Positions 49,115 to 63,121 of a stretch of DNA of 64,000 bases are shown piece after piece. Source of the stretch: a bacterium (GTDB lineage Bacteria; Orphanbacterota; Orphanbacteria; JBJXGV01). Under the pieces are notes generated by a model. It was not told the origin of the DNA. It did not search any database and was given only the letters and a program-made list of their open reading frames with translations. How positions within the stretch are numbered: the first letter of the stretch is position 1; each line of letters starts with the position of its first letter. The DNA is taken from contig JBJXGV010000073.1 of assembly GCA_046160485.1 (NCBI GenBank), forward strand, positions 12,076-76,075, read 5' to 3'. The position numbers and the translations under genes were made by a program.

Positions 49115-50578
49115 TCATCGGTTTCTCTCTCCCGGCGCTGAAGGCTCGAACGCGAGGACGAGGGCCTCGCGCGTAGTCTCGGAGATTGCGGCTTCGCGGC
49201 TGACGGCGTGCCCGACGACCCAGAGAACGCGCTCTTGATCCGCCACGACGGGGACTTGGTCTCGTTCGGTCCAAGGAACTTTTCGGTCTACGAAGAGATC
49301 TTGAATGGATTTTCTCCCGAGCATTCCGCGAGGTGCGATTCGATCGCCAGGCTTCCGGCTGCGCACTTCGAGAGGGGGGGCGATCCACTCGAGGTCGAAC
49401 TCTACAGCAAATGGGTTCCGAGAGCCATAAGGCCCTCCGACGGCGCGCGGAGCGGCGGCAGGCCGGTGCGAAAGACGTGCGGCGAGCTGCGCCGCGTCGG
49501 GCAATCCGACCGAGCCGGGGATCGCGAGCGGAAAGCAGTAGGGCGAGCGGGACGCGCGGGTGCGCGCGATCTCGAGGCGGTTGCCCGCGCGGCGTGCGAC
49601 GAGCGCATTCGGCAGCTGCAGCGTGCGGCGGCCTGGCGCGCTCGCCGCGAGGGTGACGAGCGCCTCGATGTGCGCCGCGTCGAGCGCGCACGGGGCGCTC
49701 GCGGGCGGCCCAACGCGGAGCGCGGCGAGGCGCAGCACGAACGGTGCGACGGCGGGACCAGCCGCAACGAGCCCCGCGGTGTCGAGCGCGATTTCCTCCG
49801 GGCGCTCGGAGAGCAAGATCTGCTCGAAGACGACCGCCGCTTCCTTCGCGAGCAGTTCGTCGATCGCGCTCTGATGGCGCGCGAAGCGCCCGAGCGCGCG
49901 CACAACGTCCGGGTTCACGAGCGACGCGGCCCGCGGGAGAATCTCCATGCGAACGCGGTTGCGCAGCGGCTCCATCGAGCGATTCGACGAGTCCTCACGG
50001 TGATCGGCGCCGATTCGTTCGAGGTAGCCAAGCAGCTCGTCGCGGCTCCGCTCGAGAAGCGGACGAACGACGCGCAGGTTCGAGCCGTCCGCAAGTGGCC
50101 GCTCGAGTCGAACGCCGGAAAGCCCCGCTGGGCCAGCTCCGCGAAAGAGACGCAACAGCACCGTCTCGGCTTGGTCGTTCGCCGTGTGGCCCGTCGCGAT
50201 CACGCTGCAGCCGGCGTTCGCCGCGGCCTCGCCGAGAAACGCGTACCGGACGCGGCGCGCGGCCGCCTCGAGCGATTCGCCGCGCCGCCGAACGACGCGC
50301 CGGGTCTGGATGCACGCGGGAATCCCAAGATGCGCCGCGGCGTCGCGCACGAACGCCGCGTCCTCCGCGCTCTCGTCGCCGCGCAACGCGTGGTCGAGAT
50401 GCGCGACGGTCAGCGTGAGGCCAAGGTGCGGGGCGACGGCACGAAGGACGTGCAAGAGCGCGATGGAATCGGCGCCGCCAGATACCGCGATCAACACGCC
50501 CTCGCCGTGCGACACGAGGCCCGCGCCGCGCAACGTTCGGAGCACAGCGTGCTCGAAGCGGTCGAGACGTCTTTTCAT
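49115..50578 (-). CDS. tilS: tRNA(Ile)-lysidine synthetase
   Basis: The PP-loop SGGADS sits in LIAVSGGADSIALLHVL. The protein has a long TilS-type C-terminal domain, and the gene lies in the conserved tilS-hpt-ftsH order. Confidence 0.8.
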   Translation of the reverse strand: MKRRLDRFEHAVLRTLRGAGLVSHGEGVLIAVSGGADSIALLHVLRAVAPHLGLTLTVAHLDHALRGDESAEDAAFVRDAAAHLGIPACIQTRRVVRRRGESLEAAARRVRYAFLGEAAANAGCSVIATGHTANDQAETVLLRLFRGAGPAGLSGVRLERPLADGSNLRVVRPLLERSRDELLGYLERIGADHREDSSNRSMEPLRNRVRMEILPRAASLVNPDVVRALGRFARHQSAIDELLAKEAAVVFEQILLSERPEEIALDTAGLVAAGPAVAPFVLRLAALRVGPPASAPCALDAAHIEALVTLAASAPGRRTLQLPNALVARRAGNRLEIARTRASRSPYCFPLAIPGSVGLPDAAQLAARLSHRPAAAPRAVGGPYGSRNPFAVEFDLEWIAPPLEVRSRKPGDRIAPRGMLGRKSIQDLFVDRKVPWTERDQVPVVADQERVLWVVGHAVSREAAISETTREALVLAFEPSAPGERNR

Positions 50579-50605
50579 CGGCGGCACACAGACGGACGAA
50601 AAAGA

Positions 50606-50682
50606 TGGTGGCGGTGCAGGGATTTGAACCCCGGACACAAAGATTATGATTCTTCTGCTCTGACCAGCTGAGCTACACCGCC
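50606..50682 (-). tRNA. tRNA with anticodon CAT (Met elongator or Ile2/lysidine type), CCA encoded
   Basis: The reverse complement GGCGGTGTAGCTCAGCTGGTCAGAGCAGAAGAATCATAATCTTTGTGTCCGGGGTTCAAATCCCTGCACCGCCACCA folds as a cloverleaf. The parts are a 7-bp acceptor stem, a D-arm GCTC/GAGC, an anticodon stem GAAGA/TCTTT with loop ATCATAA, and a T-arm CCGGG-GTTCAAAT-CCCTG. Confidence 0.8.
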
Positions 50683-50800: not shown

Positions 50801-51214
50801 CTATCGCGACGCGAGGAGGCGCGTGACGAGCCCGATGAACGCGTCGAAGTCGACGATCGGCTTGCCGACGTACTCGTCCGCGCCGCTCGCGGCGAGCAGC
50901 GCCTCGCGATCGCCCTTCATCGTGTGCGCGGTCGCGAGCACGACCGGCACGTCCGCCGATCGCGGATCCGCTTTGATCAGCCGCGTGATCTCGAGGCCGT
51001 CGACGGGTTGCCCCTTGTAGATGCTTCCCGAAAGCGACACGTCCATGATGACAAGCGCGACCTCGCGCGCCGTCACGAGTCGCAGTGCTTCCGCGGGATC
51101 CTCCGTGTGGTGAACGGTGAACCCGCCGCGCCGCTCGAGAACGCGCGTGATCAGCTTCACGTTGCTCGGCTCATCCTCGACGAGAAGAATTCGCGCCGCC
51201 ACTTCGCCGCTCAT
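50801..51214 (-). CDS. Single-domain CheY-like response regulator
   Basis: The receiver fold shows ILLVEDE, the phospho-acceptor D in LVIMDVSL, and a KPI motif. Confidence 0.8.
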   Translation of the reverse strand: MSGEVAARILLVEDEPSNVKLITRVLERRGGFTVHHTEDPAEALRLVTAREVALVIMDVSLSGSIYKGQPVDGLEITRLIKADPRSADVPVVLATAHTMKGDREALLAASGADEYVGKPIVDFDAFIGLVTRLLASR

Positions 51215-53631
51215 ACGTTGCGAGCCTCGTTCGCCATCGCGAACCGCGCTTCCTCGTCCCGCGCGATGCGCGCGAGCGCACGATTGAGAATGCCGGGATC
51301 CTCACCCAGACGCGCCTTCGGAATGACGCCCCACACGTGCCCCGCGCGAAGGAGGCGACCGTTCGCACCGCTGGCGAGTTCCGGGTGGTTCGTGACGATG
51401 AGAATCTCCGGCCGCTCCGACGGCGCCATTCGCGCAACTTCGCGCAGCACGCCGAACCCGTCGAGCTCCGGCATGTCGAGATCCAGAAGCACCAGATCGA
51501 TCGGCGGACTCGCGCTTCGCAGCGCGTCGAGCGCGGCGACGCCGTTTACCGCTCGTGAGACGATCGTTCCTTGCGTGCGCGTGATCCGCTCGACGATCGT
51601 CGCCATCGCCGAGTCGTCGTCGGCGACGAGCACGCGCCGCACGCGGTGAACGCCGCGCGACGGCAACGCGTGGAGGTGGCGCAAAAGCTCCTCGGCGGAG
51701 ACGGGCTTACGAACGATCGGGATCGCGCTGTGGTCGGAGCCTTCCGCGGGAATTCCCTTCCCCGCGCTCTCCGGCGAGCCCGTAACGATGACGATCTTGC
51801 AATCCCAACTGAATTGCGCGGCGCGCGTGACGAGATCGACGCCCGTTTGCACCGCGGCGCCTGGAACCTCGGGCAATCCGAGATCCACCGTCATCGCGAT
51901 CGGGCGCATCTCCTCGGCAAGATGGAGCGCTTCATCGGCGGTACGCGCGACCATCGCGCGGAAACCGCCGGAGCGGATCACGCGGTAGAGATAGCGCGCG
52001 AACGAAGGGTCGTCCTCGACGACGAGTACGAGGGGCGCGGTCGGGTCGCAGTCGGCGAGAATGGCTTGCGCCTCGCCGGCGATGACACCCTCGGTGCGCT
52101 CGGTCTCGCGCGCCGCCGGGAGCGCGAACCAAACGCGCGTGCCGCGGCCTTCGCCATCGCTGGCCAGCTCGATCGTGCCGCCCATGAGTTCGACGAGGCT
52201 CTTCGAGAGAGCGAGCCCAAGGCCCGTTCCGCCATAACGCCGCGTCTGCGATCCGTCGACCTGCGTGAATTTCTTGAAGAGTTCGGGCTGCTTTTCCCTC
52301 GAGATGCCGATTCCCGTGTCGGCGACTTCGACGACCACGGAATCGTCCTCGCCGCGAAACGCGCGCACCGTCACCGAACCCTCGTGCGTGAACTTGATCG
52401 CGTTGCCCACGAGGTTGATCAGAACTTGCCGCACGCGTTCGGAATCGGCGAGCGCTTCGGGGAGCCCCTCCTCGACGTGAAACGAGAGCCGGAGGGAGCG
52501 CGTCTTCGCCTGAACGCCCATGAGCCGCTCGGTCTCGCGAAACTCGGCGTTCATCTCCACCGGTTCGCGCGCAACCTCGAGCCGCCCCGCCTCGATCTTC
52601 GTCAGGTCGAGCAGGTAATTGATCAGCGAGAGAAGATGAAGACTGGAGCGATGGGCGTCGCGCAAGAGGTCCATCCGTTCCTTCTCGTCGTCGCAAATCC
52701 CCTCGAGAATGAGCGACAGAAAGCCAATGATCGACGAGAGGGGCGTGCGCAGTTCGTGCGACATGTTCGCGAGAAATTCGCTTTTGAGGCGGTTGGCCTC
52801 CTCGGCGCGGTGACTCTGCAGAAGCAGCTCTTCGTTCTTTCGCGAAAGTTCGAGCGTGCGCCGCTGCACGAGCGACTCGAGTTGCCCTGTGTTCTGCTCG
52901 ATGAGCCGTCGCGACTCGACGAGATACGCGGTCATGACGTTGAAAGACTCGGTGAGTTCGCCGACCTCATCGCGTGTCTTCGACTCGAGCCGCAGTTCGA
53001 AGTTGCCGGCGCTGATTTTCTGCGCGGCCTTCGTGAGCGAACGCAGCGGCTGCGCGATCTGCCGGCTCACGAGGCCCATCGCGACGCTGTTCGCCGAAAC
53101 GATCAGGAGCGTGAAGAGGAGAATCGCGCGGCGGTTCGCGCTCGATCGTGCGTAGACGCCATCGAGCGAGTAGAGAACGGAAACATGTCCGAGCACGGCG
53201 CCCGCGGGCGAAATGATCGTTTCGGTGATCGTCTCGGTGTGCGCGGCGTTCGCAAGGCGGCTTCGATGGCGCGCCTTCTCCGCGTGATTCTCGACCGGAG
53301 GAAAGCTCGCCGCGACGTCGCCCTGCGCGTCGTAGACCTGCGCCGTCAGCACCTCGGGTACGCTGCCGAATCCGGTGAGGCGCGAGGAAACCGCGTAGAG
53401 GTCTTCGAAATCGAGCGCCGGCGCGAGGCTCGTTCCGATGGCGTTCGTCACGTGCCGGATCTCGCGCCGAAGCGCGGTCAGCGCGTCGCTCTCGTGCTGC
53501 GGCGGGAAATACAGATAAACGAACGTCGCGTTCGCGATCAAGAAGACGATCGCAACGGCGACGAATTTTAGGCCGAGCGAATTCTTGAACAGAGTGATCC
53601 GAAGCGTAGACGCGATCGAGTTGATGGCCAT
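51211..53631 (-). CDS. Hybrid sensor histidine kinase (TM sensor, HAMP, HisKA, HATPase, two receiver domains)
   Basis: The H-box is MSHELRTPLSSI and the ATP lid is DTGIGI and GGTGLGLALS. Two REC domains follow (VLVVEDD... and VLVADDD...). The stop overlaps the downstream response regulator start. Confidence 0.85.
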   Translation of the reverse strand: MAINSIASTLRITLFKNSLGLKFVAVAIVFLIANATFVYLYFPPQHESDALTALRREIRHVTNAIGTSLAPALDFEDLYAVSSRLTGFGSVPEVLTAQVYDAQGDVAASFPPVENHAEKARHRSRLANAAHTETITETIISPAGAVLGHVSVLYSLDGVYARSSANRRAILLFTLLIVSANSVAMGLVSRQIAQPLRSLTKAAQKISAGNFELRLESKTRDEVGELTESFNVMTAYLVESRRLIEQNTGQLESLVQRRTLELSRKNEELLLQSHRAEEANRLKSEFLANMSHELRTPLSSIIGFLSLILEGICDDEKERMDLLRDAHRSSLHLLSLINYLLDLTKIEAGRLEVAREPVEMNAEFRETERLMGVQAKTRSLRLSFHVEEGLPEALADSERVRQVLINLVGNAIKFTHEGSVTVRAFRGEDDSVVVEVADTGIGISREKQPELFKKFTQVDGSQTRRYGGTGLGLALSKSLVELMGGTIELASDGEGRGTRVWFALPAARETERTEGVIAGEAQAILADCDPTAPLVLVVEDDPSFARYLYRVIRSGGFRAMVARTADEALHLAEEMRPIAMTVDLGLPEVPGAAVQTGVDLVTRAAQFSWDCKIVIVTGSPESAGKGIPAEGSDHSAIPIVRKPVSAEELLRHLHALPSRGVHRVRRVLVADDDSAMATIVERITRTQGTIVSRAVNGVAALDALRSASPPIDLVLLDLDMPELDGFGVLREVARMAPSERPEILIVTNHPELASGANGRLLRAGHVWGVIPKARLGEDPGILNRALARIARDEEARFAMANEARNV

Positions 53632-53736: not shown

Positions 53737-56244
53737 CTAGCGCGACGCTTCGACGCGGGGCCGGCCGTCGGCGGAGCGGTCGTGCGGAACGCTCTCGAGG
53801 CCCCAAATCTCTCGTGCGTACTCGCGAACGGCGCGGTCGCTCGAGAACTTGCCGATGCGCGCGACGTTCATGATCGCGCGGCGCATCCACGCCTCGACGT
53901 TTCGAAACTCCGCACCGGCCGCGGCCTGCGTGTCGATGTACGAGGGCATGTCGGCGAGGTGGAAATAGTGGTCACCGTGTTCGACGATCGACTGGAAGAA
54001 ATGGTGGAAGATCCCGGGTTCGTCGGGACAAAAGCGATCGGACTTAAGCGAATCCATCACGCGCGCGAGGTTGGGGTTCGACGAATAGAGGTCGCGCGCC
54101 TTGTACGATCCGGCCTTGCGGCTTGCGGCGATTTCGTCGGCGCGCATTCCGAAGATGAAGATGTTCTCCGCGCCGACCTCTTCGCGAATCTCGATGTTCG
54201 CGCCGTCGAGCGTTCCGATCGTCAATGCGCCGTTCATCGCGAACTTCATGTTTCCCGTCCCGGAAGCCTCGGTTCCCGCTGTGGAGATCTGTTCCGAGAG
54301 ATCCGCCGCCGGGATGATTTTTTCGGCGAGCGACACGCGGTAGTCGGGCAGGAATACGACGCGGATGAGGCCGCGCACCTTCGGGTCGTTATTTACGACG
54401 CTTCCGATGCTGTGCACGAGTTTGACGATGCGCTTGGCAGCCCAGTATCCCGGCGCGGCCTTTCCCGCGATGATGTGCGTGCGCGGGAACGGCGGCTCGA
54501 TTCCGTCTTCGACGAGGGTTAGGTACTCATGAATGATGTGCATGAGATTGAGGAGCTGCCGCTTGTACTCGTGAATGCGCTTTGCCTGAATGTCGAAGAG
54601 CGAGCCGGTGTCGACCTTGATGCCTGTCAGAAGGCGAATCGACTTCGCTAGGCGCTCTTTGTTGGCGCGTTTGATCGCGGCGAACTCGTCGCGGAATCCC
54701 GCGTCGTCGGCGAACGGCTCGAGGCCGCGCAGCGCGTCGAGGTCCGTCACCCACTCGTCGCCGAGCGTCTCGGTGATGAGCCCCGCGAGCGCTGGGTTCG
54801 CCTTCAGCAGCCAACGCCGCTGCGTGACGCCGTTCGTCTTGTTGTTGAAACGCTGCGGCCAGAGTTCGTGGAAGTCGGGCGCGAGCGAGGTCTTCACGAG
54901 TTCGGAATGGATGGCGGCGACGCCGTTTACCGAGTGGCAGCCGACCATCGCGAGGTTCGCCATCCGCACGAGTTTTTCGCCGCCCTCTTCGACGAGGGAC
55001 ATCCGCTTCATTCGGTCGAGATCGCCGGGCCACACGGTCAACACGTGTCGCAGGAACTTGTCGTTGATCTCGTAAATGATCTGGAGGTGTCGCGGGAGAA
55101 CTCGATCGAGGAGCGACACGGGCCACTTCTCGAGCGCCTCCGGCAGAAGCGTGTGGTTCGTGTACGCGAGCGTCTCCTGCGTGATCTTCCAGGCGCGCGC
55201 CCACGGGATTCCCTTCTCGTCGATCAGCACGCGCATCAGCTCTGCGACGGCGAGCGCGGGGTGCGTATCGTTGAGTTGAATCGCCACCTTGTGAGGGAAC
55301 TCGTCCCACGGCTTCTTCGATTTTTCGAAGCGGCGCACGATGTCGGCAATCGCGCAGCCGACGAAGAAGTATTCCTGCAAGAGGCGCAACTCGCGCCCCG
55401 AAGGCAGCGAATCGGAAGGGTAGAGCACCTTCGAGATCGCTTCGCTTGCGATCTTCTGTTCGACCGCGCGAAGGTAGTCGCCCGCGTTGAAGATCTGCAT
55501 GTCGAAGTCTTGCGACGACGTCGCGGAGTAGAGGCGCAGCGAGTTGACCGTGTGTCCGCCATAGCCAACGATCGGAAGGTCGCTCGGAATGCCGACGACG
55601 AGTTTCCAATCCATCCAAATCGGATTCGTCTCGCCGCGGCGATCGGTGTCTTGCACGAGGCGTCCGTACACGGGAATGATGCACGCCTCATCGGGCCGCT
55701 CGATCAACCACGGTTTTCCCTGCGAAAGCCAGTTGTCCGGGCGTTCGCGCTGGTAACCGTTTTCAACCTCCTGCTTGAAGATGCCGAACTCGTAGTTGAT
55801 GCCGTAACCGAAGCCCGGCATGCCGAGCGTCGCGAGCGAATCGAGATAACACGCGGCGAGGCGGCCGAGACCGCCGTTGCCGAGCGCGGCGTCCGCTTCG
55901 CCCTCGCGAATCTCCTCGAGATCGACGCCCATTCGTTCGAGCGCTTGGTGGCACATCTCGTAAATGCCGAGGTTGTAGAGATTGTTGCCGAGCGAGCGGC
56001 CGATCAGAAACTCGATCGAGAGGTAGTAGAGGCGCTTCGCGTCTGCTTCCTGGTAGCGCGCCTCCGTCTCGAGCATGCGATCGACGAGGAGATCGCGTAC
56101 GGTCAGCGCCACCGCGAGGAAAAGGTCGTGGCCCGACAGCTCGCTCCACTCTTTCCCGAGCGAGTAGCGCGCATGCCGGCGCACCGACTCTTGAAACTCG
56201 GCGGTGCGCGTCGCGCGGCTCAAATTTTTCGCAGCAGATGCCAT
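53737..56244 (-). CDS. glgP: Glycogen/alpha-glucan phosphorylase
   Basis: The GT35 motifs are present, including the PLP-Lys region EASGTGNMKFAMNGA, across the full length. The internal start MASAAK is chosen. Confidence 0.9.
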   Translation of the reverse strand: MASAAKNLSRATRTAEFQESVRRHARYSLGKEWSELSGHDLFLAVALTVRDLLVDRMLETEARYQEADAKRLYYLSIEFLIGRSLGNNLYNLGIYEMCHQALERMGVDLEEIREGEADAALGNGGLGRLAACYLDSLATLGMPGFGYGINYEFGIFKQEVENGYQRERPDNWLSQGKPWLIERPDEACIIPVYGRLVQDTDRRGETNPIWMDWKLVVGIPSDLPIVGYGGHTVNSLRLYSATSSQDFDMQIFNAGDYLRAVEQKIASEAISKVLYPSDSLPSGRELRLLQEYFFVGCAIADIVRRFEKSKKPWDEFPHKVAIQLNDTHPALAVAELMRVLIDEKGIPWARAWKITQETLAYTNHTLLPEALEKWPVSLLDRVLPRHLQIIYEINDKFLRHVLTVWPGDLDRMKRMSLVEEGGEKLVRMANLAMVGCHSVNGVAAIHSELVKTSLAPDFHELWPQRFNNKTNGVTQRRWLLKANPALAGLITETLGDEWVTDLDALRGLEPFADDAGFRDEFAAIKRANKERLAKSIRLLTGIKVDTGSLFDIQAKRIHEYKRQLLNLMHIIHEYLTLVEDGIEPPFPRTHIIAGKAAPGYWAAKRIVKLVHSIGSVVNNDPKVRGLIRVVFLPDYRVSLAEKIIPAADLSEQISTAGTEASGTGNMKFAMNGALTIGTLDGANIEIREEVGAENIFIFGMRADEIAASRKAGSYKARDLYSSNPNLARVMDSLKSDRFCPDEPGIFHHFFQSIVEHGDHYFHLADMPSYIDTQAAAGAEFRNVEAWMRRAIMNVARIGKFSSDRAVREYAREIWGLESVPHDRSADGRPRVEASR

Positions 56245-56525
56245 TCGATGTTGTTCTCGCGGAATCCCCGACGCGCCCCGTCGCCGCGAGCGGCGCTCGC
56301 GGCGAACTGGAACAAACGACCCAAAGCGATAACCCATACCGAGGCGTCTTGTCCACACAGTATCGGCGGCTCGGTAAGCCGGCGTGAGATGCATGCGGCG
56401 CGGCGGCGCGAAACAAAGGATGCGAGAGCTTCATTGCACGCGCTCTATCCGGCTGCAATAATGGGCGCTGCCGCGCGCGTGCGGCCGCGTCTCCGACGCA
56501 TCGCGACGCGCCCGCACGAGGAGAG

Positions 56526-57707
56526 ATGACGCCGAATCGAAATCCGGGCACGCCCCAACCTCCCGATAGTCCCGCTCCGACTCCCGGCGAACACGACGCT
56601 GGTGAATCGCGAGTGCCGACGACTCTCGGCGGGAGCGCGTTCTTCTACCTGCTCGACGGCGGCGTGCCGCAAGCGCGCACGATCGCGCCCGAACTCGAGA
56701 CGCAGCGAAAGATTGCGGCCGACCCGGCGCGTTCGCTCGAGGAGCGGCTCGAGGCGTTCGAAGACATCATGGACTCCGAGATCGGCGACACGACGCTTTC
56801 GCGCGCGCGCAACGTGGAGCGGGAGGTCGGCCTGCGCCAGATCTATCTCAAGTTCGACGGCGGAAATCCCACGGGCACGCAGAAGGATCGAATTGCTTTT
56901 GCGCAAGCGATGGACGCGCTCCGCCGCGGCTTCAACGCGATCACGGTGGCGACGTGCGGAAATTTTGGCGCGGCCGTCGCGCTCGCGGCGTCGGTCGCGG
57001 GGCTGCGCTGCATCGTTTACATCCCCGAGGGCTATCACACGAAGCGTGTCGACGAGATGACGGGCTACGGCGCGGAGATCGAGCGCGTGCCTGGAGATTA
57101 CGAGAACGCGGTAATCGCGTCGCGCGCGCGCGCCACGCGCGACGACGTTTACGACGCGAACCCGGGCGGCGCGAACACGGCGCTTCAACTTCGCGCATAC
57201 GGCGAGATCGCCTACGAGATCTACGACGAGTTGCGCGACGCGCCGGCCGCTGTCGCCGCGCCGGTTTCGAACGGCACGACGCTCGCGGGGATCTATCGCG
57301 GATTTCTAAGCCTCTACCGGCGCGGGAAGACATCGCGGATGCCTCGCATCATCGCGGGCTCGTCGCAGGGCAAGAATCCGATCGTCAAGGCGTTCATCAA
57401 AAAGACGCCGCACTGCGAGAATCTCGATCCTGACTTGATTCGCGAGACGGCTGTCAACGAGCCGCTGATCAACTGGCATTCGATCGACGGCAATCACGCT
57501 CTCGACGCGCTTCGCGCGACGGGAGGATGGGCATCGAACGCGACCGACAAGAATTTGCTCGCGACGGCGCGGCTGATTCTCGAGCGCGAAGGGTTGAACG
57601 TCTTGCCGGCGTCGACCGCGGGACTGGTGGCGCTGCTCGAAAAGCATCGCGAGGAAGCGCTTCCGGGCGATCGCTACGTCGTCGTGCTGACGGGGAGGCG
57701 GTCGTGA
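56526..57707 (+). CDS. Threonine-synthase-like fold-type II PLP-dependent enzyme
   Basis: The PLP-Lys motif is GGNPTGTQKDR (compare the threonine synthase NPTGSFKDR). A Gly-rich loop and a Pro-rich N-terminal extension are present, so the start may be downstream of the first ATG. Confidence 0.65.
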   Translation: MTPNRNPGTPQPPDSPAPTPGEHDAGESRVPTTLGGSAFFYLLDGGVPQARTIAPELETQRKIAADPARSLEERLEAFEDIMDSEIGDTTLSRARNVEREVGLRQIYLKFDGGNPTGTQKDRIAFAQAMDALRRGFNAITVATCGNFGAAVALAASVAGLRCIVYIPEGYHTKRVDEMTGYGAEIERVPGDYENAVIASRARATRDDVYDANPGGANTALQLRAYGEIAYEIYDELRDAPAAVAAPVSNGTTLAGIYRGFLSLYRRGKTSRMPRIIAGSSQGKNPIVKAFIKKTPHCENLDPDLIRETAVNEPLINWHSIDGNHALDALRATGGWASNATDKNLLATARLILEREGLNVLPASTAGLVALLEKHREEALPGDRYVVVLTGRRS

Positions 57708-58786
57708 CGGGTGCTCCGCCGCTCGACGGCAACGCGATCGTCTACTGCGAGGGCGCGTTCGCGACGCCGAATGGAAAGACGGCGCACGGGCTGGTGCGGC
57801 GCACGGCGCGCTATCGCGTTCTTGCCGTGATCGATTCGCGCCATTCGGGAAAGGATGCGCGCGAGGTGCTCGACGGAAAGCGCACCGGCATCCCGGTCGT
57901 CTCAAGCGTCGGCGACGCGCTCGATGCGGCGCGTGCGGCCGGCGCGGCGGCAACCCACTTCGTGATCGGGCTCGCGCCCGACGGCGGCCGGCTTCCCGCG
58001 GCGGCGCGCGCGGACGTGTTGCAGGCCGTGCGCGCCGGCCTGCACGTCGACAGCGGTCTGCACGACTTTCTCTCCGACGACGCGGAGATCGCAGCACTCG
58101 CGCGTGAGAACGGCGTGCGAATCCGCGACGTCCGAAAGACGCCGCCGCGCAACGAACTCCACTTCTTCAGCGGGAAGATCGAGCAGGTGACGTCGCTGAC
58201 GGTCGCGCTTCTCGGCACGGACTCGGCGGTCGGAAAGCGGACGACGGCGTGGGTGCTCGTCGAGGCGTTGCGCGCCGCGGGAAAGAGCGCGGAGATGATC
58301 GGCACCGGACAGACCGCGTGGATGCAGGGCGCGCGCTACACGCTCATTCTCGATTCGCTCATCAACGATTTCGTGGCCGGCGAAATCGAGCACGCGGTGT
58401 GGAGCGCGTGGAGCGATCTGCACCCCGACGTGATCGTGATCGAAGGACAAGGGAGCCTCATGAATCCGGCGTACCCGGGAGGCTTCGAGATTCTCGCGGC
58501 GGGACGGCCCGACGTTGTCGTTCTGCAGCACGCGCCCGCGCGCAAGGAGTACGACGGTTTCCCCGGCTACCCGCTTCATCCGATCGATGTGCAGATTCGC
58601 GCGGTCGAACTGCTCTCCGGTAAACCAGTCGTCGCCGTGACCGTCAACCACGAGGACCTCGCGCGCAACGAGATTCCCGCGGCGTGCGAGGCGATTCGAC
58701 GCGCGACGGGGTTGCCCGTATGCGATCCGCTAGTGGACAGCATGGACGAGATCGTCGCCGCGGTGCTCGCGCGCGGGAAACGCTAG
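57704..58786 (+). CDS. DUF1611-family protein (Rossmann-like; the family includes D-glutamate N-acetyltransferase DgcN)
   Basis: The GTG start overlaps the preceding stop (GTGA). The length and conserved blocks (LGTDSAVGKRTT, IVIEGQGSL) match DUF1611. A dipeptide-epimerase gene lies nearby. Confidence 0.6.
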   Translation: MTGAPPLDGNAIVYCEGAFATPNGKTAHGLVRRTARYRVLAVIDSRHSGKDAREVLDGKRTGIPVVSSVGDALDAARAAGAAATHFVIGLAPDGGRLPAAARADVLQAVRAGLHVDSGLHDFLSDDAEIAALARENGVRIRDVRKTPPRNELHFFSGKIEQVTSLTVALLGTDSAVGKRTTAWVLVEALRAAGKSAEMIGTGQTAWMQGARYTLILDSLINDFVAGEIEHAVWSAWSDLHPDVIVIEGQGSLMNPAYPGGFEILAAGRPDVVVLQHAPARKEYDGFPGYPLHPIDVQIRAVELLSGKPVVAVTVNHEDLARNEIPAACEAIRRATGLPVCDPLVDSMDEIVAAVLARGKR

Positions 58787-58791
58787 GCCGC

Positions 58792-61305
58792 GTGGCGACG
58801 CGACGCACGGCACCGCGTGCAAAACCCGCGGCCAAACCGCGCGCTGCGCGTTCGACGGCGCGAGCCAAACCGCGCGCGGCGCGCTCCGCCGATCCGCTCG
58901 CCGTTCTGCAAGTAATCGACCGCCTCGATGTCGGGCCCGTGCGCGTCGAACGCACGCGCCTGATCGCGCCGTACACGGTGACGCGGCGCGGCGCGAGCGA
59001 ATCCTTCGATCTGATCTACCGGTTCGGCGAAGACGTTTTCGAGCCGCACGACGCGGCGTCTCGGAATCTCGCATCGATGATCGCCGCTCAGGTCGCTATC
59101 AACTACGGGCTCTTCTGCGGCGAGATTGCGTTCCGCGGGCCGTTCGACGAAAGCGATCAGCGCTTCATCGAGGAGATGGTCGAGAACACCGCGCGCGAAA
59201 TCTTCGTGAAGAGGTTCCTCGAGCCGAATCTGTTTCTCGTGGGGCCGGCGTCGCTCTTGCCGCCCGTGAAGCGCGAGTCGTATACGCGCGCGAAACTGCT
59301 CTTCGATGCCGGCGCCGCGGAGCCGCGCGCGGAGGTTGCCGGCGCCGACGGACGCGGCGCGCGTTGGCGTGTCGATCCCGCGCGCCACGCGGTTCTCTCG
59401 AGCGGCGGGAAGGACAGCCTCCTCACGTACGGCCTCCTCCGCGAGATCGGGCGTGAGTCGCATCCAATCTTCATCAACGAGTCGGGGCGCCACTGGTTCA
59501 CTGCGCTCAACGCGTACCGGCACCTCGTCGCGGTCGAGCCGAAGACGGCGCGCGTTTGGACGAACGCCGACCGGCTCTTCACGTGGATGAAGCGCCATCT
59601 TCCGTTTGTCCGCGCCGATTTCGATCGCGTGCGCGCCGACTACTACCCGATTCGCCTCTGGACTGTCGCGGTCTTCCTCTTCGGATCACTTCCGCTTCTG
59701 CGCAAGCGCGGTATCGGCCGCCTCGTGATCGGCAACGAGTTCGACACGACGCGGCGCCTCACGTTCGAAGAGATCACGCACTACGACGGTCTCTACGACC
59801 AGAGCCGTTACTTCGACAACGCGCTGACGCGATACTTCGCGCGAAAGGCTTGGGGCGTCGCGCAGTTCTCGATTCTGCGCCCTCTCTCTGAGCTGTTGAT
59901 CCAGAAGATGCTCGTTCAACGCTATCCCGATCTTCAGCGCGACCAAGTGTCGTGCCATATGACGCACAAGGACGGCGATCGCGTGTTGCCGTGCGGCGCG
60001 TGCGAAAAGTGTCGGCGCATCGTGAGCATGCTCGTTGCGTTCGGCGGCGACCCGTCGGCGTGCGGCTACGCGTCCGACCAGATCGCGCAGTCGATCGCTG
60101 CGTTCGCCGAGAAGGGATCGCACACAGAGACTCCGGGCGCACAGCACGTCGCGTTTCTCTTGCGGGAGAAGGGGCTCTTTCCGACGGTCGCGGCCGGCGC
60201 GGGCGCGGTGAGCGCGCGCGAGCGGCCCGAGATCGCGAAGCTGCGATTCGATCCCGAGCGATCGCCGTCGCATGGCATGCCCAACGATCTGCGCGAGCCG
60301 CTCTACCGCATCTACCTCGAGCACTGCGACGGCGCCGTCAAGAAGAGCGGGCGCGTTTGGATTCCGTGCGACCCGCTGCGCGACGAGACGTTTTCGGGGC
60401 CGTATCCGTTCGAGCGTCTCGCGCGCGGGCGCGGCGCGGCTGCGAGCAGTGGCGACCCGACATCGCCCGCGACGCGCGCGCGCGCCGCGGGAGCGCATCC
60501 TCCAGCGACTGCCGAGAGGGGCGCGCGCGACTACCTCCTCGGCGAGTTGACGTGGCCGGAGGCTCGCGCGCGCCTCAAGGAAATGGACGTCGCGCTTCTT
60601 CCCGTCGGCGCTATCGAGCAGCACGGGCCGCACCTGCCGCTCGACACGGACGCATTCGACGCCGAGTATCTCGCGCACCAAGTCGCATCGACATGCACCG
60701 ATCCGAAGCCGCTCGTGCTGCCGCTCATTCCATACGGCGTCTCGTACCACCACGACGACTTCAGCGGAACGATTAGCGTCAGCAACGAAGCGCTCTCACG
60801 CATCGTCTACGAGATCGGCATCAGCGCGGCGCGCAACGGGATCACGAAACTCGTCATCATCAACGGCCACGGCGGCAACGCGCCGACGCTCCAGTTCGCG
60901 GCGCAAATGATCAATCGCGACACGAGCATCTTCACATGCGTCGACACCGGCGAGACGAGCGACGCGGACATCTCCGAGATCGTCGAGACGCCGAACGACG
61001 TTCACGCGGGCGAGGTCGAGACGAGTACATCGCTCGCGAATCGCCCCGGTCTGGTCAAGTTCGACAAGGCACGCAAACTCGTCCCGCGATTCTCGAGCCG
61101 CTTCCTCGATTTCTCCTCGAAGCGGAGCGTCGAGTGGTACGCGCGGACCTCGCGCATCTCGCCGACGGGCGTGCTCGGCGATCCGACGAAGGCGTCGCGC
61201 GAAAAAGGCGAGCGCATCTGGGAGCTCATGGTTCAGCGCCTCGTCGAGTTCGTCGAGCACCTCAAGACGCTGTCGCTCGATGAGATCTACCAGCGGAAAT
61301 ACTAG
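58792..61305 (+). CDS. Fusion protein: N-terminal PP-loop ATP pyrophosphatase (QueC-like, with Cys-cluster) joined to a C-terminal creatininase-family amidohydrolase
   Basis: The PP-loop reads HAVLSSGGKDSLLTYGLL and the zinc-ribbon-like cluster reads CHMTHKDGDRVLPCGACEKCRR. The C-terminal 270 aa carry the creatininase-family metal-binding motifs GAIEQHGPHLPLDTD, IINGHGGN and HAGEVETS. The probable GTG start lies just after the DUF1611 stop. The tracked ORF start at 58684 overlaps the previous gene. Confidence 0.6.
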   Translation: MATRRTAPRAKPAAKPRAARSTARAKPRAARSADPLAVLQVIDRLDVGPVRVERTRLIAPYTVTRRGASESFDLIYRFGEDVFEPHDAASRNLASMIAAQVAINYGLFCGEIAFRGPFDESDQRFIEEMVENTAREIFVKRFLEPNLFLVGPASLLPPVKRESYTRAKLLFDAGAAEPRAEVAGADGRGARWRVDPARHAVLSSGGKDSLLTYGLLREIGRESHPIFINESGRHWFTALNAYRHLVAVEPKTARVWTNADRLFTWMKRHLPFVRADFDRVRADYYPIRLWTVAVFLFGSLPLLRKRGIGRLVIGNEFDTTRRLTFEEITHYDGLYDQSRYFDNALTRYFARKAWGVAQFSILRPLSELLIQKMLVQRYPDLQRDQVSCHMTHKDGDRVLPCGACEKCRRIVSMLVAFGGDPSACGYASDQIAQSIAAFAEKGSHTETPGAQHVAFLLREKGLFPTVAAGAGAVSARERPEIAKLRFDPERSPSHGMPNDLREPLYRIYLEHCDGAVKKSGRVWIPCDPLRDETFSGPYPFERLARGRGAAASSGDPTSPATRARAAGAHPPATAERGARDYLLGELTWPEARARLKEMDVALLPVGAIEQHGPHLPLDTDAFDAEYLAHQVASTCTDPKPLVLPLIPYGVSYHHDDFSGTISVSNEALSRIVYEIGISAARNGITKLVIINGHGGNAPTLQFAAQMINRDTSIFTCVDTGETSDADISEIVETPNDVHAGEVETSTSLANRPGLVKFDKARKLVPRFSSRFLDFSSKRSVEWYARTSRISPTGVLGDPTKASREKGERIWELMVQRLVEFVEHLKTLSLDEIYQRKY

Positions 61306-61551
61306 TGCGGTTCGCGTGAGTCGCGTGTTCTTGCCGCCGTCGTTCTCACCTCTCGCGCTGTTGCGAACCATCCCGCCGCGACGCGGGGTGTCTCCCGCGG
61401 GGCCGTGTCGACGCCGCCGGGTGCCCGCCCGAAGCAGCGCTTTGCGCTGCCTGGCGGGCGGCGCCGCGACCCGGAGGGGAGGCGCGAGAGCGCCGGACCC
61501 GTCCCCGCCGGAGACACTTCGCGTCGCGGCGGCGGCCGGAGCCCCAGACCA

Positions 61552-62619
61552 GTGAAGATCACCGCGGTACACGCCTGGCCAGTAACGATGCGATTGGCGG
61601 AGCCGTATGCGATCGCGTACGAGACGGTCGAGACGACGACGAATGTATTCCTACGAATCGAGACAAACCGGAGCATCGTCGGATTCGGGTGCGCGGCGCC
61701 GGATCGCGAGATCACGGGGGAGACGCCGGAGGGCGTGCTCGCGGCGGTGCGCGACGTGATCGCGCCGGCGTTTAAGGGCGCGGATCCGTTGCGGTCGGCG
61801 CTTCTGCTGCAGCGGTTGTGGGCGCCGCTCGCCGCGCAGCCGTCTGCGATGGCCGCGGCGGACATCGCGCTCTACGACTTGCTCGGGAAAGCGGCGGGTC
61901 TGCCGCTCTGGAAAATTCTCGGCGGCTTCCGCGATCGCATGCGCACGAGCATTACCGTGGGAATCTTGCCCGTCGACGAGACGGTGCGCCGTTCACGCGC
62001 GTGGGTCGACGATGGTTTTCGATGTCTGAAGATCAAAGGCGGGCTCGACCTCGACGAAGACGTGGAGCGCGTGCTGAAGGTGCGCGCCGAAGTCGGCGAT
62101 GGGATCGAGTTGCGCTTCGACGCGAATCAGGGCTACACAGTCGAGCAGTCTCTCACGTTCGTCGAACGTGTGCGCCCGGCGCGGCTCGAGCTGATCGAAC
62201 AGCCGACGCCGAAGGGCGAGCCGGATCTCTTGGGCCGCGTGGCGAGCGGCGTGTCGATTCCCGTGATGGCCGACGAGAGCTTGATGACGCTGCGCGACGC
62301 GTACCGAATCGCGCGAAAAAACTTCGCCGACATGGTGAACGTGAAACTGATGAAGGTCGGCGGCATCTCCGAGTCGCTCAAGATCAACGCTGTTGCGCGC
62401 GCCGCGCGGCTTGAAGTGATGGTGGGCTGCATGGACGAAGCGGCGCTCGGGATCGCCGCGGGGCTCCACTTCGCGCTCGCGCGCCCGAACGTGATGTACG
62501 CCGATCTCGACGGACACATCGGCCTCGTCGGCGACCCCTCCGACGGCGCCGTCATTCTCAAGAACGGAACGCTTTTCCCCAATGACAAGCCGGGGCTCGG
62601 ATTCGATTTCCCGGAATAG
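61552..62619 (+). CDS. Enolase-superfamily dipeptide epimerase (L-Ala-D/L-Glu epimerase-like, MR/MLE subgroup)
   Basis: There is a capping domain, and the barrel carries a KIKGG-type Lys region (CLKIKGG), the metal ligand DANQGY, and a second Lys region NVKLMKVGG. A probable GTG start gives VKITAVHAWPV. Confidence 0.7.
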   Translation: MKITAVHAWPVTMRLAEPYAIAYETVETTTNVFLRIETNRSIVGFGCAAPDREITGETPEGVLAAVRDVIAPAFKGADPLRSALLLQRLWAPLAAQPSAMAAADIALYDLLGKAAGLPLWKILGGFRDRMRTSITVGILPVDETVRRSRAWVDDGFRCLKIKGGLDLDEDVERVLKVRAEVGDGIELRFDANQGYTVEQSLTFVERVRPARLELIEQPTPKGEPDLLGRVASGVSIPVMADESLMTLRDAYRIARKNFADMVNVKLMKVGGISESLKINAVARAARLEVMVGCMDEAALGIAAGLHFALARPNVMYADLDGHIGLVGDPSDGAVILKNGTLFPNDKPGLGFDFPE

Positions 62620-62659: not shown

Positions 62660-63121
62660 ATGCCCGCGATCAACGTCGGCGATGCCGCTCCCGATTTCAC
62701 GCTACGGGATCATATGCGGAACGATGTGACGCTCTCTGCGTTCCGCGGCCAGAAGAAAATCGTGCTCGCGTTCTATGTGTTCGCGTTCACCGGTGGCTGA
62801 ACTCGCGAGCTGCAGGCCTACCAGCAGAACGTAAGCGCGCTGGAAGCGGCCGACACCCAGGTTCTGGGTGTGAGCATGGACAGTCCATTCGCGAACAAGG
62901 CGTTCGCCGAATCGATCGGCGTCACGTTCCCGCTCTTGAGCGATTGGGGAGGCGATGTGACGCGCGCGTACGGCGTCTACAACGAAAAAGAGAAAGCGCC
63001 GCGCCGCGTGACGTATCTCATCGACAAGACCGGCAAGGTGACGTCGATGCAAGTCGACAAGGACGCGGTGGATCCGACAGCGATCGTGACCGAGTGCACG
63101 ATCGGCGCGCCGAAGAAGTAA
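62660..63121 (+). CDS. Peroxiredoxin (Bcp/PrxQ-like) with an in-frame TGA at the peroxidatic-cysteine position, a candidate selenocysteine-containing PrxU-like protein
   Basis: A GGAGGAGGAAG RBS precedes MPAINVGDAAPDFTL...KKIVLAFYVFAFTGG-[TGA 62798..62800]-TRELQAYQQNVSALEAADTQVLGVSMDSPFANKAFAES... The two tracked ORFs 62582..62800 and 62870..63121 are in the same frame and together reconstitute a full-length Prx. Its F-T-x-x-C-T-x-E active-site motif reads F-T-G-G-U-T-R-E. Confidence 0.65.

Follow-up and report, generated by a model that had tools for sequence, protein, structure and literature searches.

We analysed a stretch of 64,000 nucleotides (nt; hereafter the window, positions being counted from its first letter) of contig JBJXGV010000073.1, from a bacterium of the lineage Orphanbacterota (assembly GCA_046160485.1, positions 12,076 to 76,075 of the forward strand). 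The window contains four adjacent genes that encode, in this order, an enzyme resembling threonine synthase (ThrC) and dependent on pyridoxal 5′-phosphate (PLP), a DUF1611 protein, a fusion of a PP-loop module with a creatininase-type hydrolase, and a dipeptide epimerase of the enolase superfamily (genes 1 to 4; Table 1). These four genes form one operon. They lie contiguously and in the same order at 61 of the 81 distinct loci that were compared, from genomes with about 12 phylum labels; recurrence of this order at independent loci whose flanks differ goes far beyond what chance would produce. The enzyme families involved are known ones; the family of the domain at the hub of the system is new. 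Full-text literature searches returned no paper on the four-gene cluster and never relevantly combined a creatininase with a PP-loop, a dipeptide epimerase, threonine synthase or QueC; DUF1611 was mentioned in unrelated papers only, and "DgcN" as a search word yielded unrelated acronyms only. An earlier interpretation made from the DNA letters alone (the sequence-only reading) had likewise known of no described pathway with this combination.

Organization of the four-gene locus

The raw open reading frames (ORFs) span 56526-57707, 57527-58786, 58684-61305 and 61405-62619, all on the + strand, in agreement with the single strand and the outer coordinates given by the sequence-only reading. The ORF-level starts at 57527, 58684 and 61405 are likely too early, the probable starts being GTG codons at 57704, 58792 and 61552. 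The first of these, within the sequence GTGA, is preceded by GGGAGG and overlaps the end of gene 1 by 4 nt, stop codon included; the second lies 5 nt past the gene 2 stop. The third was chosen because the gene 4 product then aligns from its first residue (residue 1-2) with YkfB, as it does with two further dipeptide epimerases. The junctions consist of one overlap (genes 1/2), one 5-nt gap (genes 2/3) and one 246-nt gap (genes 3/4), so that of the two overlapping start/stop junctions originally described only the one at 57704 is a true overlap.

The sequence separating genes 3 and 4 includes an imperfect inverted repeat whose 37-nt arms are 86% complementary; its RNA fold has a z-score of −3.7 and it occurs as a single copy within the window. 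Because the corresponding gap has a median length of 12 nt in the other loci, the spacer looks like an insertion and is probably a palindromic element that does not form part of the pathway. Rfam gave no match between positions 56000 and 64000 at E values up to 1, spacer included, and across 17 related loci the sole match was tRNA, with no riboswitch or other RNA clue. Promoter and terminator scans found nothing exceeding shuffled sequences.

Table 1. Genes, domains and motifs of the operon, with positions in the window (aa, amino acids).
Feature	Position	Strand	Remarks
Four-gene cluster	56526-62619	+	All four genes present at these outer coordinates (ORF list)
Gene 1, fold-type II PLP enzyme, 393 aa	56526..57707	+	PALP, E 1.5e-56
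PLP-lysine motif NPTGTQKDR	56865-56891	+	Gene 1; aligns with ThrC NPTGSFKDR-type motif; invariant among orthologues
Motif ATCGNFG	56949-56969	+	Gene 1; invariant
Gene 2, DUF1611 protein (DgcN family), 360 aa	57704..58786	+	PF17396 (DUF1611_N) and PF07755 (DUF1611)
Walker-A-like motif GTDSAVGKRTT	58214-58246	+	Gene 2; intact, conserved among orthologues
Gene 3, 837-aa fusion	58792..61305	+	MFN0152603.1, annotated "creatininase family protein"
N-terminal domain, about 150 aa	58888..59337	+	Gene 3; no close relative among known structures
QueC/MurL-like PP-loop ATP-pyrophosphatase domain with C-terminal extension	59359..60417	+	Gene 3
PP-loop motif SSGGKDS	59398-59418	+	Gene 3; invariant
Cys cluster SCH...CGACEKC	59950-60012	+	Gene 3; four-Cys motif, invariant as SCH...PCGxCEKC
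Low-complexity linker	60418..60543	+	Gene 3; between the catalytic halves
Creatininase-family (MftE-like) metal-dependent amidohydrolase domain	60544..61305	+	Gene 3
Creatininase motif EQHGPH	60616-60633	+	Gene 3
Creatininase motif NGHGGN	60862-60879	+	Gene 3
Creatininase motif HAGEVETS	61003-61026	+	Gene 3
GC-rich spacer, 246 nt	61306-61551	+	Between genes 3 and 4; repeat arms 61373-61409 and 61496-61532
Gene 4, enolase-superfamily dipeptide epimerase, 355 aa	61552..62619	+	MR_MLE_N and MR_MLE_C
DxD motif DLDGH	62503-62517	+	Gene 4; invariant in orthologues

The four gene products and their characterised relatives

The NCBI version of the gene 1 product has 364 aa, starts from GTG 56613 and is named only "PLP-dependent enzyme". 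Its best NCBIfam model is the "threonine synthase" PRK06381 (NF004996), which gives 421 bits (cutoff 266), every other ThrC model of NCBIfam lying far under its cutoff, and its best solved relatives are threonine synthases (E 1.8e-30). When three solved ThrC proteins were aligned, each showed the sequences STGNT and R-[IL]-EGQKT, whereas gene 1 has TCGNF and QLRAYGE, both conserved in 67 of its orthologues, so that Phe occupies the T88 position of ThrC. In the Thermus enzyme, the Thr of STGNT and the Arg of R-[IL]-EGQKT are the residues that we take to bind the phosphate of the substrate, O-phosphohomoserine. Thus, although gene 1 keeps the PLP-lysine motif and exceeds one equivalog cutoff, the replacement of both phosphate-binding residues makes threonine synthase activity unlikely, and the large "threonine synthase" family to which it belongs is probably misnamed. 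Ahead of the PALP domain, the orthologues of gene 1 (loci L002-L084) share an N-terminal extension, located at 56526-56790 in the window, with the pattern LLDGA...ELE.QK..A.D...LEERLEAYEDI.DSEVGDT; shorter relatives of about 330 aa are without it.

The exact 360-aa product of gene 2 is present in NCBI as MFN0152602.1. It consists of a Rossmann-like N domain followed by a P-loop domain and has solved relatives in 2g0t, 2obn and 7xrj. DgcN acetylates D-Glu (EC 2.3.1.312), and DgcA racemises N-acetyl-D-Glu (EC 5.1.1.25) (PMC11747546). The operon resembles this pair in having a gene for a putative DUF1611-family acyltransferase beside one for an enolase-superfamily racemase or epimerase. It differs from it in that two further enzymes are involved and in that the scores are low, gene 2 reaching 157 bits with the DgcN model (cutoff 480) and gene 4 152 bits with the DgcA model (cutoff 400). 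The kinship with DgcN and DgcA suggested by the sequence-only reading thus holds at the level of families (DUF1611, enolase superfamily) and not at that of orthologues.

Gene 3 is a single ORF, for which one full-length tblastn match was obtained at each of the 81 loci. Its product comprises, in order, a novel domain, a QueC-fold PP-loop domain with a four-Cys motif, a variable linker and an MftE-like metallo-amidohydrolase, so that the fusion of a PP-loop enzyme with a creatininase, as originally proposed, was confirmed by the SSGGKDS motif, the QueC-like fold and the Creatininase domain. The linker is poorly conserved, varies in length in an alignment of 25 gene 3 homologues (alignment A1) and has a predicted local distance difference test (pLDDT) score below 50. 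In the hydrolase half, the full Pfam Creatininase domain (PF02633) is confined to ORF residues 621-857, the last 240 or so, and the metal motifs (EQHGxH...D, NGHGGN and HAGExETS) are invariant in alignment A1. The top-scoring named model for this half was MftE, with 157 bits against a cutoff of 172, creatininase itself reaching 104 against 235. Besides falling short of the MftE cutoff, gene 3 differs from the MftE system in having no mftA/B/C-like genes nearby and in placing its hydrolase behind an ATP-dependent module of 540 aa.

This N-terminal part of about 540 aa (the N-module) matched no Pfam family, QueC included, even at an E value of 10. The AlphaFold model of the fusion had a pLDDT of 70, with values mostly above 85 in the N-module, and Foldseek comparison with solved structures retrieved QatC, QueC and Cap9. 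In the model, the fold of the N-module is closest to those of QueC and Cap9. Gene 3 shares with QueC the SGGxDS motif, the alpha/beta PP-loop fold and the C-terminal four-Cys motif; it differs from QueC, Cap9 and QatC in having no QueC Pfam match, no PADLOC match and no deazaguanine or defence partner genes. A 7-deazaguanine substrate, considered on account of the QueC fold, was set aside for want of que, fol or tgt genes around the cluster.

The gene 4 product aligns end to end with YkfB (1jpm, E 2.8e-67), 3jva and 3rit, and among solved proteins it is most similar to L-Ala-D/L-Glu and other dipeptide epimerases (E about 1e-67). Two lysines align (KIKGG and NVKLMK), and DANQG, EQP and ADES stand at the metal-ligand positions. 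In YkfB, the DxD motif binds the free N-terminal ammonium group of the dipeptide while Arg24 binds the side-chain carboxylate of Glu. The DxD motif, typical of dipeptide epimerases and a point of difference from DgcA, is kept in gene 4. The position of Arg24 is occupied by Glu, in gene 4 as in at least 90% of 64 orthologues. Since the DxD motif is kept and Arg24 replaced, the sequence suggests that the substrate is probably a dipeptide with a C-terminal residue other than glutamate, which may be cationic. For all its likeness to YkfB and YcjG in full-length alignment, DxD motif, lysines and metal-ligand positions, gene 4 departs from them at Arg24, in the lack of neighbouring genes for murein-peptide peptidases or transporters, and in scoring under all NCBIfam equivalog cutoffs.

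Conservation across phyla

A word-indexed search with the fusion protein returned thousands of relatives, the top 120 all being fusions of about 800 aa that were 62-67% identical beyond the closest few, and a scan of one genome per species found relatives in at least 414 species. By tblastn, the four window proteins were compared with 81 distinct loci. Phylum labels among the best 80 loci of the species scan included Desulfobacterota, Acidobacteriota (among them Aminicenantes and Thermoanaerobaculia), Gemmatimonadota, Calditrichota, Planctomycetota, Latescibacterota, Ignavibacteria, Bacteroidota, Zixibacteria, KSB1, Krumholzibacteria and others, mostly lineages known only from metagenomes; the delta proteobacterium NaphS2 was the sole isolate. 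The carriers are mostly anaerobes of sediments and the subsurface.

Where the complete arrangement was not found, the cluster was cut by contig ends (10 loci), the epimerase gene was displaced by 2.6-3 kb (2 loci) or absent though there was room for it (3 loci), the DUF1611 gene was absent (1 locus), or just the PLP enzyme and the fusion were present (4 loci, in Desulfobacterales). Across the loci, each of the four proteins is 56-75% identical to its counterpart in the window. The flanks are unrelated between loci, and when all the flanking ORFs were clustered, no fifth universal gene emerged. Loss of synteny in related genomes, or the assignment of each gene to a separate housekeeping pathway, had been named in advance as the outcomes that would speak against a common operon. 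Neither was observed: synteny was kept, and the genes travel together amid unrelated flanks, with the phosphate-binding residues of ThrC lost in gene 1. The cluster ranks among the more strongly conserved uncharacterised operons, and its role is likely an important one for anaerobes of sediments and the subsurface.

A reduced cluster is present twice, on separate contigs (L071 and L083), in one metagenome-assembled genome of the Desulfobacterales. Each copy comprises the PLP enzyme, the fusion and a YitT membrane protein; neither includes DUF1611 or the epimerase.

Distant variants and the core of the system

When 1.84 billion cluster representatives were searched by phmmer without filters, the N-module alone gave only 459 matches, among them stand-alone proteins, 460-523 aa long and 28-51% identical, and distant fusions with 30-32% identity. 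Comparison of the partners found across these variants showed the PP-loop module to be the hub of the system, with DUF1611, the PLP enzyme and some amide hydrolase as its steady partners. DUF1611 lies directly upstream of the module at locus L096 and on an archaeal contig (L091, which carries L21e, Rpb4, Pus10 and PolB genes), and is fused to the N-module in protein P0124, a natural fusion from which an interaction between the two would be predicted. At L085, PALP and DUF1611 genes are close to the module, together with a GNAT gene. At L095, the same operon encodes a GNAT-HDAC fusion and a 452-aa protein of no assigned family, and GNAT, DUF1611 and PALP genes are divergent from it. At L097, a RimB-like protease gene is found upstream of the module and a PALP gene downstream. 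The hydrolase accompanying the module thus varies, being a creatininase, a GNAT-HDAC fusion or a RimB-like protease, and is always an amide hydrolase; within the main family, GNAT-HDAC fusions also occur directly upstream of gene 1 (L017, L035, L063 and L067). The enolase-type epimerase is the most dispensable part and is confined to the main variant. These data reverse the view that the core is a DUF1611-epimerase pair split by the fusion gene.

A distant relationship between the hub module and MurL

Among NCBIfam families, MurL is the only one matching the N-module when 28 diverse members of the fusion family were scanned individually. Nine of the 28 matched it (best E 7.2e-10), gene 3 itself doing so at E 7.5e-5 with about 20 bits against a cutoff of 700. 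Because such scores are far under the MurL equivalog cutoff, the comparison indicates distant homology at the sequence level and not membership. A homology search starting from the most distant stand-alone member, P0220, found close relatives only and no bridge to MurL.

MurL, which requires ATP and Mg2+ and forms AMP, acts in one direction, turning an N-acylated C-terminal L-Glu into D-Glu; its discoverers described it as devoid of known domains and suggested that the alpha-carboxylate becomes adenylated (PMC5808125; PMC8788868). Given the relationship to this ATP-dependent epimerase, the PP-loop module of the operon may invert configuration itself and not only form amides. A parallel can be drawn with the MurD2/MurL route to D-glutamate, which serves the peptidoglycan of Xanthomonas and some actinobacteria: MurD2 attaches the L-amino acid, and the AMP-forming MurL acts on the C-terminal N-acylated residue. 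Differences are plain too. No MurD2 or other mur gene adjoins the operon, the partners being DUF1611 and the PLP enzyme, and the N-module, present in an archaeal contig as well, has an extra N-terminal domain and is joined in one protein to a creatininase-type hydrolase. The link between the N-module, MurL and the QueC PP-loop fold provides a testable structural basis for ATP-dependent epimerisation.

A possible route through N-acyl or dipeptidyl intermediates

We tentatively propose, while holding it short of an even chance, that the operon converts an amino acid by an undescribed route that passes through an N-acyl or dipeptidyl intermediate. The route that we favour, with the same reserve, consists of acylation, adenylation with epimerisation, and deacylation combined with a PLP step. 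The DUF1611 protein, as a relative of DgcN, would acylate the amino group. The N-terminal half of the fusion would then use ATP to adenylate the C-terminal carboxylate of the resulting N-acyl amino acid or dipeptide, leading either to a one-way inversion at the alpha carbon, as in MurL, or alternatively to formation of an amide. The enolase-type epimerase would equilibrate the C-terminal residue of a dipeptide having a free N-terminus, and the creatininase/MftE-like half of the fusion would hydrolyse the amide bond, releasing the product. Finally, the PLP enzyme would make or consume the free amino acid by beta or gamma replacement, elimination or racemisation, and would not act as a threonine synthase.

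This route is favoured because of the relatives of the modules, the MurD2/MurL parallel and the constant presence of an amide hydrolase. Characterised relatives of three of the five catalytic modules invert amino acids through N-acyl or peptidyl intermediates (DgcN, MurL and DgcA/YkfB). By analogy, the most persistent pair, DUF1611 with the MurL-like module, would mirror MurD2 with MurL: attachment first, then inversion at the expense of ATP.

Several observations weigh against this proposal. The equivalog models for DgcN, DgcA, Ala-Glu epimerase, MftE, creatininase and MurL all score below cutoff, and the sole model above cutoff is the "threonine synthase" whose phosphate-binding residues are missing in gene 1. 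An enolase-type epimerase working beside a MurL-like one looks redundant. Acylation by DUF1611 is not obligatory in the four Desulfobacterales loci, since they have just the PLP enzyme and the fusion. To our knowledge, QueC-fold enzymes of established function form amides or nitriles and do not epimerise. The role assigned to the PLP enzyme is a guess, and any link with homeostasis (see below) derives solely from gene neighbourhood in related, possibly non-independent genomes.

Recurrent neighbours and alternative interpretations

Some genes recur within 10 kb of the operon in several phyla without being universal (flanks of L005-L084); their counts were obtained with no control locus set and include related genomes that are possibly non-independent. 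Genes for DUF2179 membrane proteins lie directly downstream on the same strand at 22 loci (YitT-DUF2179 at 13, DUF5698-DUF2179 at 9). Neighbours related to Mg2+ transport are CorA (9 loci), MgtE (8) and CNNM/CorB (3), in addition to CitMHS. A mechanosensitive channel is found beside the operon at 5 loci, and cyclic di-AMP enzymes at others (the diadenylate cyclase CdaA at 3, a DHH phosphoesterase at 3). Polyamine genes are represented by arginine decarboxylase (SpeA), agmatinase and carboxynorspermidine dehydrogenase and decarboxylase, and lysine 2,3-aminomutase occurs with Ddl-like ligases or with a GNAT-HDAC fusion. In the window, a divergent glycogen phosphorylase gene (53737-56394, − strand) adjoins the operon; an alpha-glucan phosphorylase gene is next to it at six or more loci of different lineages (L007, L017, L068, L074, L079 and L083, with L001 listed too). 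These neighbours hint at a role of the operon product in cation or osmotic homeostasis.

If this hint is followed, the operon could make a small organic solute or counter-ion, for example an N-acyl, amidated or cyclic derivative of an amino acid, for osmotic homeostasis or that of Mg2+, K+ or polyamines. In that case the task of the PP-loop enzyme, as of characterised QueC-fold and other PP-loop enzymes, would be to make an amide or amidine bond, and that of the creatininase-like domain would be ring opening or closure. We consider this interpretation doubtful, despite the recurrence of the DUF2179, Mg2+-transport, mechanosensitive-channel, cyclic di-AMP, polyamine, lysine 2,3-aminomutase and phosphorylase genes in several phyla: its support is confined to such neighbourhood data, the families concerned belong to no known solute pathway, no product can be named and it is hard to see what the epimerase would do in making a solute.

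Our preferred acylation-epimerisation-deacylation route could be combined with the homeostasis hint into a bolder proposition, to which we give little credence at this stage: an ATP-driven machine, independent of racemases, that makes a D-configured or modified amino acid or a small solute derived from it, on which many uncultured anaerobic phyla would depend for cation or osmotic homeostasis, with a hub belonging to an unrecognised QueC-fold family that also explains MurL. If true, the operon would represent a new central-metabolic pathway with a new enzyme family, and not a variant of the Dgc route or of murein recycling.

Somewhat less probable again is that the operon serves catabolism or salvage of D-amino acids or cell-wall dipeptides, extending the logic of DgcN/DgcA and YkfB/YcjG: substrates would be epimerised, acylated and hydrolysed, and the PLP enzyme would deaminate the product, the PP-loop module being an added activation or proof-reading device. 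The family-level matches to DgcN, DgcA and the Ala-Glu epimerases are consistent with it, as are the sediment and subsurface habitats of the carriers and the presence of Peptidase C69 and gamma-glutamyltranspeptidase genes near the cluster at 4-5 loci. Set against these are scores far under the orthologue cutoffs and the Glu that replaces the Glu-binding Arg of YkfB. Expenditure of ATP would be unusual for catabolism, and the epimerase and DUF1611 are the parts that can be absent. Moreover, DUF1611 is paired with the PP-loop module in an archaeal contig, murein being absent from most archaea, and proteins so similar from phylum to phylum (56-75% identity) suggest a central function under tight constraint.

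It is very improbable that, as in scaffold-peptide pathways like those of mycofactocin or the pearlins, the operon modifies the C-terminal residue of a carrier peptide and the MftE-like domain then cleaves this residue off. The rank of MftE among the named models, the RimB-like protease of one variant, and the fact that the closest folds, Cap9 and QatC, modify protein termini would fit such a scheme. Against it, clustering of ORFs of 18-95 aa within 1.5 kb of the cluster at the 81 loci gave only fragments of the core genes and shadow ORFs and no conserved small ORF; the spaces between the genes leave too little room for a hidden precursor gene, and neither a radical-SAM enzyme nor MftA/B/C-like genes are present.

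Finally, chance adjacency of unrelated housekeeping genes, or an anti-phage system with a QueC-like enzyme at its centre, hardly deserves credence: NF004996 is passed and QatC and Cap9 are defence proteins, but the former is contradicted by the synteny and by the loss of the ThrC phosphate-binding residues, and the latter by the absence of any PADLOC match for the four proteins and of QatA/B/D, CD-NTase or TGT partners.

The hub of the system is a module of about 540 aa that has no Pfam family. Its substrate, once worked out, would lead to functions for DUF1611 proteins beyond Dgc and for the large, probably misnamed "threonine synthase" family.

Other genes flanking the operon in the window

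Directly downstream of the operon lies a gene for an AhpC/TSA peroxiredoxin (62660-63121, + strand), interrupted by an in-frame TGA at 62798-62800. The TGA falls at the exact position of the peroxidatic cysteine (FAFTGG*TRE), and substitution of Cys at this site gives a Pfam match with an E value of 2.8e-37, making the product a candidate selenocysteine peroxiredoxin; the hairpin following the TGA folds no better than shuffled sequence.

On the other side, upstream of the phosphorylase gene, the − strand carries between 49115 and 53631 a TilS-like PP-loop gene (49115-50638), a response regulator gene (50801-51214) and a gene for a hybrid histidine kinase of 806 aa (51211-53631), these three labels having been assigned by reading the translations alone.

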